This document shows, piece by piece, positions 8,271 through 10,972 of a stretch of 64,000 bases of DNA. Source of the DNA: Anaerolineae bacterium (GTDB taxonomy: Bacteria; Chloroflexota; Anaerolineae; Anaerolineales; UBA4823); assembly GCA_003130835.1 (NCBI GenBank), contig QEXX01000081.1, positions 4,467-68,466 on the forward strand. Direction: 5' to 3'. Both the position numbers and the translations under genes were made by a program. Each line of letters starts with the position of its first letter. Within the stretch, counting starts at the first letter, position 1. Below the pieces are notes generated by a model. The model did not search any database and had not been told where the DNA came from. It saw only the letters and a program-made list of their open reading frames with translations.

Positions 8271-8672
8271 CCTTCCTTATTGGATCGAGAGGTGCGTCCT
8301 CTGAACGAGGGGTGTGGCAAGGGTAGGGGAATTTTATCATCGTTTGAAAGCAAACTGTGGGGCAAAAGGTCAACCCAACACCTTGCCGTGCCGCAACCAG
8401 CAGCGCAAGCGCCCAGCCCAGCGGAAACATCCACAGCCAACCATATAATGAAACTGAGCAATAGCAACCCGCATTCAGTAGCTGGCTGCTAGGCAACCGT
8501 TCTCCGTTGCAGTTGGCTCAGAACGGTCGGCGGTTGTGTCTCTGCAGGGATGGCCGGTAAGAAAAGAAAGAATCGATTCCCATCGCGCGAAATCACGTTG
8601 TCAGAAATTCCGACTACATTTATACTATAGGCGCGTTGAAAACACGTGTAATGCGCAAGAAAGGAAATCTTT

Positions 8673-9449
8673 ATGGCGTTATCCGTTGGGCAACTGGCAC
8701 CCGACTTTACTCTGTTCGACCAGCGCAAGCGCCCGGTCTCTCTGAGCGACTTTCGCGGGCGCAAGAATGTGGTCTTGGCTTTCTTCCCGCTGGCTTGGAC
8801 ACCAATATGAAGCAGCCAAATCCCATCCTATCAGGCGGCGCTCGACCGCTTTGAGCGGATGGATACCCAGGTTCTGGGTATTAGTGTGGACAGCAGCGAT
8901 TGTCTCTATGCTTGGGCGGAAAGCCTTGGCGGGATCACCTATCCCTTGCTGAGCGATTTCTTCCCGCATGGGCGCGTGGCGCAACTGTATGGGGTGCTGC
9001 GCCCTGAAGGGTATAGCGAGCGGGCGATCTTCGTCATCGACAAACGAGGGGTGATTCGCTATGTCGATGTGCACGAAATTGACGATCAGCCAGATAATGA
9101 GGTGCTGTTTGCTGAGCTGTATAAGCTCGAGCCAGAGTTAGCCGAAAAAGATCGCCAGATTCTGCAACGCCAGCAACAAGCCGAGGCTGCCAGCGAACCC
9201 GAAGCTCCTGCAGCCGAGGTGGTCATGTATTGCACCCCGTGGTGCCCAGCTTGCCGACGGGCGCGCGCCTACTTTAATGAGAAGAAAATTCCCTTTGTGG
9301 AGATCGACATCTCACGTGACCGAACGGCGGCTGCCCAAGTGCGCCAATGGGCAAAAGGCAACGAGACCACCCCCACCTTCCTCATCAAGGGCAAGGTGAT
9401 TGTAGAGTTCCGCATCGATGAAATCGAAGCGGCGCTAAAGCAAACGTAG
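8673..9449 (+). CDS. AhpC/TSA (AhpE-like) peroxiredoxin fused to a C-terminal glutaredoxin-like domain; probable selenoprotein
   Basis: ATG 8673 reads [14 protein letters not shown]...[13 protein letters not shown]-(TGA 8808-8810)-SSQIP..., in frame with ORF 8859..9449; TGA occupies the Cys of PxxxTxxC; C-terminal YCTPWCPAC and TTPT Grx motifs. Confidence 0.9.
8823..8863 (+). promoter_or_regulatory. candidate bacterial SECIS hairpin
   Basis: CGCTC/GAGCG upper stem (8839-8843 with 8853-8857), loop starting with G 33 nt after TGA; lower stem CCATC/GATGG also possible. Confidence 0.5.
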
Positions 9450-9616
9450 CGAGGGATGCAGCCATTGTGCTGGCGCACAATGGCTGCAAAAAGCTTTGTT
9501 CGTGCACAGCGTCGGGCTGCTCAGGCGCCATGCACACCCAGGGATGGCTGACTGGCTGCAGCTCGCCGCTGGACAGCCAGCGATAGAAAGCAAAATCGGT
9601 AGAAAGCGAGGTTGTG

Positions 9617-10972
9617 ATGTTAATCCTGAACGGTAAATTGATCACCTGGCAAGTCGAAAACCTTCTAATGGAGGGGATGGCAATCCGCATTGCTGACGGG
9701 CGCATTGCCGAGATTGCCCCCCAAGCGGATTTGCTCGCCCGCTACCCCCAGGAAGAGACTTTGGATGCGCATGGGCAGTATGTGATGCCCGGCAACATTT
9801 GCGCTCACACTCACTTCTACGGTGCCTTTGCGCGCGGCATGGCTATCCCCGGCCCAGCCCCCAAAGACTTCCCCGAGATCCTGCAGAAATTGTGGTGGCC
9901 GCTGGATCGTTCCTTGACCCTCGAAGACGTGCGTCTGTCCACGCAGGTCATGTTAGCCGATGCCATTCGCCACGGCACCACCACGCTGATCGATCACCAT
10001 GCCTCACCAAACGCCATCGAAGGCAGCTTGGATGTCATCGCCGAAGAAGTGGAAAAAGCCGGCTTGCGGGCTGTGCTGTGCTATGAGGTCACCGACCGCG
10101 ATGGAGCAGAAAAAACCCAAGCCGGAATCGAAGAAAACCTGCGCTTTTTGAAAGCTTGCGCCGACGGCAAACGCCCGCTGGTGCGCGCCACCTTTGGCTT
10201 GCATGCCAGCTTGACCCTCTCCGATGATACCCTAGAACGTTGCCGCTCGCTTGCTCCCGCCGGGGTGGGCTTTCACATACACGCGGCCGAATCGGACGCC
10301 GATGAATACGACAGCCTGGCAAAGTCGGGCTTACGTGTCGTCGATCGTTTAAATCGGCATGGCATCCTCGGCCCGAACACCATTTTAGCCCACTGCGTGC
10401 ATGTCGATGCCCGCGAGATGGAAATCCTTGCCGAGAGTGGTTCGTGGGTCACCCACCAGCCGCGTTCAAACATGAACAACGCTGTGGGGGTTGCCCCGGT
10501 CGAGTCCCTGCTGCGCATCGGTGTGCCGGTCTGTTTGGGCACCGATGGCTTCTCCTCGACCATGTGGGAGGAGTGGAAATTTGCCTATCTGGTGCAGAAA
10601 GTCTGGCACCGCGATCCGCGCCGTATGCCAGCCAATCTGATCGCCGATATGGCAATCTACAACAACGCCGCCTTGGCGCAACGCTTCTTTGGGGAAGCCC
10701 CCCTTGGCATCCTGCAAGAAGGCGCCTTTGCCGACCTGATCTTGGTCGATTATCACCCGCACACCCCCTTAACAGCCGATAACTTGCCCTGGCACATCGT
10801 CTTTGGCTTCCACGAAAGCATGATCACCACCACCATCGTTAACGGAAACATCCTGATGAAGGATCGCCAGCTCTTGACCGTTGACGAAGCTGCGGTGGCG
10901 GCGCGGGCGCGCGACTTTGCCCCGCGCGCTTGGCAACGCTATCAAGCCAATGTCCTTGGGCAAGAGGATTAA
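9617..10972 (+). CDS. ssnA: SsnA-like aminohydrolase (amidohydrolase superfamily)
   Basis: MPGNICAHTHFYG, TTTLIDHHASP, HIHAAES, LAHCVH, HQPRSNMNNAVG and LGTDG motifs. Confidence 0.8.
   Translation: MLILNGKLITWQVENLLMEGMAIRIADGRIAEIAPQADLLARYPQEETLDAHGQYVMPGNICAHTHFYGAFARGMAIPGPAPKDFPEILQKLWWPLDRSLTLEDVRLSTQVMLADAIRHGTTTLIDHHASPNAIEGSLDVIAEEVEKAGLRAVLCYEVTDRDGAEKTQAGIEENLRFLKACADGKRPLVRATFGLHASLTLSDDTLERCRSLAPAGVGFHIHAAESDADEYDSLAKSGLRVVDRLNRHGILGPNTILAHCVHVDAREMEILAESGSWVTHQPRSNMNNAVGVAPVESLLRIGVPVCLGTDGFSSTMWEEWKFAYLVQKVWHRDPRRMPANLIADMAIYNNAALAQRFFGEAPLGILQEGAFADLILVDYHPHTPLTADNLPWHIVFGFHESMITTTIVNGNILMKDRQLLTVDEAAVAARARDFAPRAWQRYQANVLGQED

Follow-up and report, generated by a model that had tools for sequence, protein, structure and literature searches.

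The present work concerns a gene on the forward strand (positions 8673-9449) of a stretch of 64,000 nucleotides (nt) from an Anaerolineae bacterium of the phylum Chloroflexota (QEXX01000081.1, positions 4,467 to 68,466), referred to below as the window and lying on contig C39 of a 3.45-Mb genome that is 94% complete. The start codon (ATG 8673-8675) has a Shine-Dalgarno-like AAAGGAAAT (8660-8668) just 5' of it. Codons 37-45 spell FFPLAWTPI and codon 46 is a TGA (8808-8810), the sole in-frame interruption before the TAG stop at 9447-9449. Read through this TGA, the frame has 258 residues and comprises a peroxiredoxin domain (residues 1-153; 8673-9131), a Glu/Gln-rich linker (154-182; 9132-9218) of which residues 154-173 are predicted to form a single long helix, and a glutaredoxin-fold domain of mycoredoxin/NrdH-like character (183-258; 9219-9446) with a CPAC motif (C191-P-A-C194; 9243-9254). 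The TGA occupies the peroxidatic position of the peroxiredoxin signature, P39-x3-T43-x2-U46. An open reading frame (ORF) list under translation table 11 contained only a 196-aa frame from ATG 8859 (M63). The start, the FFPLAWTPI stretch and the TGA in place of the peroxidatic Cys had all been pointed out in an initial annotation made from the letters alone and hold as described; its AhpC/TSA domain, acidic linker and CPAC glutaredoxin domain were confirmed by translation and Pfam. For the reasons laid out below, we consider it very probable that the locus encodes a genuine selenoprotein, namely a peroxiredoxin of the AhpE subfamily with a single selenocysteine (Sec), whose acidic, helical linker leads into a dithiol domain of the mycoredoxin/NrdH-type glutaredoxin fold.

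Both domains scored well above the Pfam cut-offs, with AhpC-TSA (PF00578) covering residues 5-131 (E 1.7e-39, 135 bits versus a cut-off of 26) and Glutaredoxin covering residues 183-243 (E 3e-15, 56.6 versus 22.9). Across 158 fused sequences, P39, T43, P44, U/C46, R117, W190, C191 and P234 showed no variation and C187 and C194 almost none, such that the protein combines a score above the gathering threshold with an invariant PxxxTxxU motif and the invariant catalytic arginine, R117, of peroxiredoxins. In a PDB sequence search, the top seven matches of the N-terminal domain were all Mycobacterium tuberculosis AhpE (E ~5e-33), far ahead of 2-Cys peroxiredoxins. An AlphaFold2 model built with 50 homologues (pLDDT 92, pTM 0.83, with the lowest confidence in the active-site loop, residues 41-50) returned the same protein as the top 12 Foldseek matches (TM-score 0.91-0.94, root-mean-square deviation (rmsd) 1.3 Å, 42% identity). 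A universal resolving Cys is missing as well: C77, the one further Cys of the peroxiredoxin domain, is retained in 81% of the 158 fused sequences and is mostly Ser or Thr in the other 19%. Thus, AhpE is the closest relative by sequence and by structure, and both comparisons place the N-terminal domain among the AhpE-type peroxiredoxins. No NCBIfam model reached its cut-off on the 258-aa protein, which therefore carries no curated-family name.

The best solved relative of the C-terminal domain is mycoredoxin-1 (2LQO, E 4e-8); small proteins of NrdH/thioredoxin-like character come next. Neither the mycoredoxin model TIGR02200 (43.9, cut-off 89.5) nor the YruB model TIGR02196 (62.2, cut-off 88.55) was reached. 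The domain is marked by an invariant or near-invariant pattern, Y186-C187-T188-x-W190-C191-x-x-C194, together with the cis-proline P234. Of note, C187 is a third near-invariant Cys in this stretch (residues 187-194, window 9231-9254) and produces a C-x3-C-x2-C arrangement (Y-C-T-x-W-C-P-x-C); mycoredoxin-1 has a Thr at this position. A relay thiol and a metal or cluster ligand are both possible roles for this residue.

The comparison with mycobacteria is instructive, as Mrx1 is described as the reductant of mycobacterial AhpE, whether mycothiol takes part or not (Hugo et al. 2014, as cited in PMC6178380). M. tuberculosis AhpE (Rv2238c; PDB 1XXU, 1XVW, 4X0X) is of the one-Cys type like the N-terminal domain studied here, yet has Cys45 where the latter has Sec. 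Mycoredoxin-1 (Rv3198A; PDB 2LQO) is a separate chain with a CGYC active site, whereas the domain in the window is fused, has a CPxC motif and possesses the additional C187. Furthermore, the mycobacterial pair is found in Actinomycetota and the fused protein in Chloroflexota. By sequence and by this analogy, then, the fusion unites in one chain two proteins that act elsewhere as partners.

The initial annotation had placed the protein among the peroxiredoxin-glutaredoxin hybrids; the fusion stands, but its peroxiredoxin part is of the AhpE type and not of the Prx5 type of the known hybrids. The Haemophilus influenzae hybrid PGdx (1NM3) shares the domain order and the principle of a peroxidase with its own reductant domain, while it belongs to the Prx5 subfamily, uses Cys and depends on glutathione (GSH). 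In the Foldseek search, 1NM3 came up at rank 21 only, with an rmsd of 10.4 Å over 259 columns and 23% identity, and its glutaredoxin part appeared in the sequence search with an E of only 5e-4. Membership in the GSH-dependent CPYC-type Prx5 hybrids was accordingly rejected, given the AhpE-type domain, this rank and the lack of a GshB hit in the genome. The AhpE-redoxin fusion looks like an independent development in parallel to the Prx5 hybrids.

If the TGA were a private nonsense mutation, as the initial annotation had contemplated, it should be confined to this genome. Instead, two scans of GTDB species-representative genomes revealed a TGA at the codon-46 column in 117 further loci, with the protein conserved on both sides (45-93% identity) and with Anaerolinea thermolimosa IMO-1 and A. 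thermophila among the carriers. Only six fused loci in the same scans had a Cys codon there. When 301 genomes were sampled evenly across the class, exactly one TGA was present in 27 of 28 full-length matches (which include the window's own genome) and none in the remaining one. Such recurrence at a single column is far beyond chance. The homologues without TGA all have Cys at this site, which is equivalent to Cys45 of M. tuberculosis AhpE, so that the column consists of TGA or Cys codons only. In a tree of 165 sequences (FastTree), Cys forms occupied nine or more distinct, well-supported positions within a Sec-dominated topology; two unfused outgroups on long branches (L085, L090) fell inside the ingroup and their placement was ignored. 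The Sec/Cys alternation anticipated for this column was hence found, and its distribution on the tree is that of a selenoprotein family still in use, in which Sec and Cys have been exchanged repeatedly, and not that of a private nonsense allele. Besides, other genomes of the class carry unfused AhpE-type Sec-peroxiredoxins of ~155 aa (loci L153 and L156-L160).

Sec-containing peroxiredoxins (PF00578, TxxU) as such form a recognised family of bacterial selenoproteins (PMC1794560, PMC13188914), with the Eubacterium acidaminophilum protein PrxU (Sohling et al. 2001) as the prototype. PrxU resembles the present protein in having Sec for the peroxidatic Cys of PxxxTxxU, coexisting Cys homologues and a selenocysteine insertion sequence (SECIS) inside the coding sequence. 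However, PrxU is of the Prx1/AhpC type, whereas the protein described here is an AhpE-type enzyme that has a redoxin domain fused to it and a two-hairpin signal, and membership in the PrxU family (NCBIfam NF040737) was rejected at 60.8 bits against a cut-off of 270.

Of the selABCD set brought up by the initial annotation, selA (554 bits), selB (370 bits; C1:25302-27191) and selD (365 bits) are present in the genome, all above curated cut-offs, along with one tRNA-SeC(tca) (ARAGORN; C18:19157-19251). TGA is an ordinary stop in this organism, terminating 565 of 1659 long ORFs, and the genetic code is standard. The selD gene itself (C59:4576-5511, forward strand; locus L010) has an in-frame TGA, in SSCAGU-ASKL. 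Two more genes with an in-frame TGA deserve mention. One, on the minus strand of contig C94, codes for a Sec-peroxiredoxin of the AhpC/Prx1 type (FYPGDFTFVU; TGA 31249 of the reverse-complemented contig) and is equipped with a SECIS of canonical form, AGCGGC-GGUC-GCCGCU, whose loop G-U occupies positions 22-23. The other is the second UGA-at-Cys gene that had been noticed within 8 kb in the window, a redoxin gene at 798-1277 on the forward strand (159 aa; TGA 927-929 in a U-P-F-C motif), whose best NCBIfam match, 'SelL-related redox protein', falls short of its cut-off (84 versus 120 bits) and which has a hairpin GGCGC-AGUU-GCGCC with G-U at positions 30-31 after the UGA. The genome thus has at least four selenoprotein genes, of which three are of the peroxiredoxin fold. 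When it was scanned for CAG-GUN-CUG hairpins after an in-frame TGA under a relaxed upstream-frame requirement, three of the 50 candidates had a recognisable selenoprotein sequence, namely the gene at 8673-9449, selD and the AhpC-type peroxiredoxin; the others resemble noise.

Downstream of the UGA, the RNA is structured. The segment 8800-8880 folds with a minimum free energy of -29 kcal/mol (z = -2.4 versus shuffles). The hairpin after the TGA mentioned in the initial annotation is indeed there, yet it is not a single element: a conserved pair was found, consisting of hairpin I (8823-8862; 40 nt, starting 12 nt after the UGA, with a covarying base and a variable apex) and hairpin II (8863-8881; AUACCCAG-GUU-CUGGGUAU), the candidate SelB-binding stem-loop, whose 8-bp stem and 3-nt loop (8871-8873) overlap codons T65-Q-V-L-G69. 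Folded individually, nearly all Sec forms display the same layout of UGA, 11-12 unpaired nt, a hairpin I of 40-42 nt, 0-2 nt and hairpin II. Among 98 distinct sequences, 79.7% of cells were paired in the two-hairpin structure, versus 26-45% with slid 3' partners, and none of 500 shuffles reached any of five measures. For helix II, the paired fraction rises to 95.9%, and compensatory changes at its pair 67/81 (GC in 47 sequences, AU in 45) couple the non-synonymous first position of a Thr/Ala codon to the synonymous third position of a Gly codon. Third-position entropy is 1.11 bits at V67, 0.0 at L68 and 1.06 at G69, compared to 1.4-2.0 for most other conserved four-fold codons. In the six Cys loci, both hairpins are absent and the folds are weaker by 10-20 kcal/mol. 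The RNA structure is thus under selection in the TGA forms. In one fixed register, hairpin I accommodates only 71.6% of cells, since its base is shifted in the window's clade. A search against Rfam at gathering thresholds gave no match anywhere in the window.

Which of the two hairpins is bound by SelB is less clear-cut. The published bacterial SECIS model (PMC13188914) calls for a 4-16 bp stem and a 3-9 nt loop with a G in its first two positions, located 16-37 nt from the UGA. Hairpin II complies as to stem and loop but not distance, its loop lying ~60 nt after the UGA and hence beyond this range. Hairpin I, with its apical loop at 22-30 nt, complies as to distance, but its loop is not conserved. 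These positions speak against assigning SelB binding to hairpin II, and one may instead suppose, as the less likely reading, that hairpin I is the SelB-binding SECIS and hairpin II an accessory, e.g. a ribosome pause or a refolding clamp. Besides its distance, hairpin I has a G within the first two loop positions in 69 of the 98 sequences, which makes it a possible real SelB site; its start 11-12 nt past the UGA coincides with that of the Escherichia coli minimal stem-loop, and its base covaries. On the other hand, the hairpin I loop is diverse, with the commonest sequence found in 4 of 98 and a G followed by G or U in only 11 of 98, whereas the hairpin II loop is GUN or GGUNN in 94 of 98.

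Three further observations bear on this choice. First, a G-U loop on a G+C-rich stem is common to the other Sec genes of the genome (G22 U23 in the C94 peroxiredoxin, G30 U31 in the redoxin gene 798-1277, and G37 U38 in selD), which share no feature of hairpin I. Second, the selD UGA is itself followed by two tandem hairpins, a 14-nt AGCGC-GGCA-GCGCU and then GGCGCAG-GUG-CUGCGCC, and presents a smaller version of the two-hairpin layout; when the intervening hairpin is subtracted, the loop G comes to lie at position 23 in selD and at 22-24 in the Sec-AhpE fusion family, counted from the U of the UGA. Third, in a sub-clade of fused Sec forms (L061, L065, L086), hairpin II has been lost (codons VEII, VEIF or VELI), and it is hairpin I whose apex bears GCCA-GUU/GUC-UGGC. 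In these forms, the G-U loop has thus moved naturally to the canonical distance.

The fdhF-type SECIS of E. coli provides a useful yardstick. It likewise has an 11-12 nt single-stranded spacer after the UGA and a stem-loop whose loop starts with G-U, as in hairpin II, and its essential loop bases, G23 and U24, occupy the same position as the hairpin-subtracted loop G of the present family. It differs, as does the bSECISearch model, in placing the G-U loop at 16-37 nt and not at ~60 nt behind a hairpin of 40-42 nt. We take the CAGGUUCUG of hairpin II to resemble the fdhF apex, CAGGUCUG.

Owing to the conserved G-U loop, the other Sec genes of the genome, the effective position and the relocation in the three orthologues, we lean modestly towards SelB binding at hairpin II, with hairpin I serving as a folded spacer. 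SelB and tRNA-Sec of the organism would decode UGA 8808 as Sec under the guidance of an RNA structure within the coding sequence; in the reading we lean towards, hairpin I would fold out and thereby set hairpin II at the canonical effective distance. Both hairpins recur in the unfused genes (L153, L156-L160), with a AUACCCAGGUUCUGGGUAU that is almost identical, and the signal therefore belongs to the peroxidase module and not to the fusion product; Sec and its RNA signal are older or wider than the fusion. More tentatively, with the scales tipping slightly the other way, the Sec-AhpE family, its unfused relatives and, in miniature, selD might use a distinct class of SECIS in which the SelB-binding G-U hairpin resides ~60 nt downstream and reaches the canonical effective position (loop G at 22-24) because an intervening hairpin folds aside. 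If so, the linear 16-37 nt rule of SECIS-based gene finders would not reflect a physical requirement.

The gene is transcribed. RNA contigs from four hot-spring microbial-mat metatranscriptomes start at 8643 or 8645, 17-19 nt past a sigma-70-type promoter-like site (8598-8626, forward strand; TTGTCA-17 nt-TATACT, 10 of 12 matches), and cover the region from 8643 to beyond 9800 with zero differing letters and the TGA intact; at 8402-8605, these metatranscriptomes show no coverage. In one run, adapter sequence at the contig start marks a true fragment end. The Shine-Dalgarno-like element thus falls in a 5' untranslated leader of 8643-8672. The evidence for U46 extends to the level of the transcript, and selenium insertion at this residue is a prediction.

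Two further ways to account for the TGA appear highly improbable to us. One holds that it is a true stop, leaving a 45-residue peptide and/or a 196-residue protein from ATG 8859 (M63) as products of a decayed peroxiredoxin. TGA does serve as a normal stop in this genome, and among the best 120 protein clusters, 53 begin at M63, their automatic annotations being proteins of 196-204 aa. However, the first third of the peroxiredoxin fold, with P39 and T43, is encoded by the 135 nt before the TGA and is conserved in the 117 other loci as well, and a decaying fragment would not stay in frame throughout the class. A protein from M63 would have no active site, only the TGA forms possess the RNA structure, and the transcript begins upstream of ATG 8673. 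The other, recoding of the UGA to Trp, Gly or Cys by a variant code or near-cognate read-through, could draw on the 27 clusters that show W or G at the site, but the column is Cys in every homologue without TGA and in M. tuberculosis AhpE, an enzyme with W or G as its peroxidatic residue would be dead, TGA ends a third of the long ORFs, and the genome has a complete Sec system as well as further Sec genes that share the loop motif.

As to the same 120 clusters, the site is W in 25 and G in 2, and true Cys forms account for another 39. The 27 entries with W or G (P0021, P0023, P0025 and 24 others) stem from JGI and other public pipelines. This is the pattern to be expected if genetic code 4 or 25 was applied to the TGA, and it suggests that contigs with such genes are sometimes wrongly assigned one of these codes.

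Taking family chemistry and domain architecture together, a catalytic cycle can be proposed. The selenolate of U46, activated by T43 and R117, would reduce a hydroperoxide and be converted to a selenenic acid. C191 of the redoxin domain, from the same or a partner subunit, may then attack to form a selenenylsulfide, which C194 would resolve, giving rise to a C191-C194 disulfide. The latter would be re-reduced by NADPH/thioredoxin reductase, either directly, as in NrdH-type redoxins, or through thioredoxin. The peroxidase is thus probably recycled by its fused redoxin domain, in keeping with the architecture.

For the reductant, the initial annotation had named GSH or thioredoxin. A thioredoxin reductase is present in the genome (386.7 bits, above cut-off; C49:78782-79675), and our search of the genome recovered neither BshC nor GshB, nor any MshC that passed its cut-off. 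With no marker for GSH, mycothiol or bacillithiol, GSH is therefore the less likely of the two, and NADPH/thioredoxin reductase, acting directly or via thioredoxin, would be a likelier electron source than a low-molecular-weight thiol. Some points detract from this scheme, in which both the electron path and the substrate are deduced. The absence of the thiol pathways, not proven as it stands, is based on a 94% complete genome and one marker gene per pathway. Given that the C-terminal domain stays below the mycoredoxin and YruB cut-offs, a family name cannot supply the reductant. Finally, C77 could act as the resolving Cys ahead of the redoxin domain.

With respect to the surroundings of the gene, an inverted repeat whose 13 bp match perfectly around a TGGC loop of 4 nt, and which has no T-run, lies shortly past the stop codon (9458-9487, forward strand). 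It was discarded as a canonical terminator, since it lacks such a run, was not called by a terminator scan and is passed through by the RNA contigs, which continue from the selenoprotein gene into the downstream gene. The latter (9614-10972, forward strand) encodes an SsnA-family aminohydrolase (TIGR03314, 'putative selenium metabolism protein'; 506 bits, cut-off 455.5) and is followed by npdG, while an acetyltransferase and a GT4-FkbM fusion lie upstream on the other strand. This neighbourhood, including the ssnA adjacency, is common to the three closest relatives only and therefore says little on function. Despite the joint RNA contigs, we treated the adjacency as local synteny and did not retain a functional link to ssnA.

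In the literature, our coverage of which was incomplete, we found no description of an AhpE-type Sec enzyme, of a Sec-containing peroxiredoxin-glutaredoxin fusion or of selenoproteins from Anaerolinea. Nor did we find described the combination presented here, i.e. an AhpE-type Sec enzyme with a mycoredoxin-like dithiol domain that is widespread in Anaerolineae and has a two-hairpin signal with a distal G-U loop, which is not proof of novelty.

In summary, more than 100 species-level genomes carry this gene, among them those of the cultured Anaerolinea thermophila and A. thermolimosa, and the gene is common in Anaerolineae. Public gene calls render it either as a 196-aa stump or as a mistranslation with W or G, and a dedicated model would correct this recurrent error. 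The distal G-U hairpin behind a folded spacer lends itself to a direct test against the accepted SECIS distance rule. The at least nine natural Sec/Cys switches among close orthologues of thermophiles offer material for addressing what Sec adds to a peroxiredoxin. Lastly, the fusion of AhpE with a mycoredoxin-like domain backs the AhpE-redoxin partnership from outside the Actinobacteria and points towards a route that is independent of a thiol cofactor.

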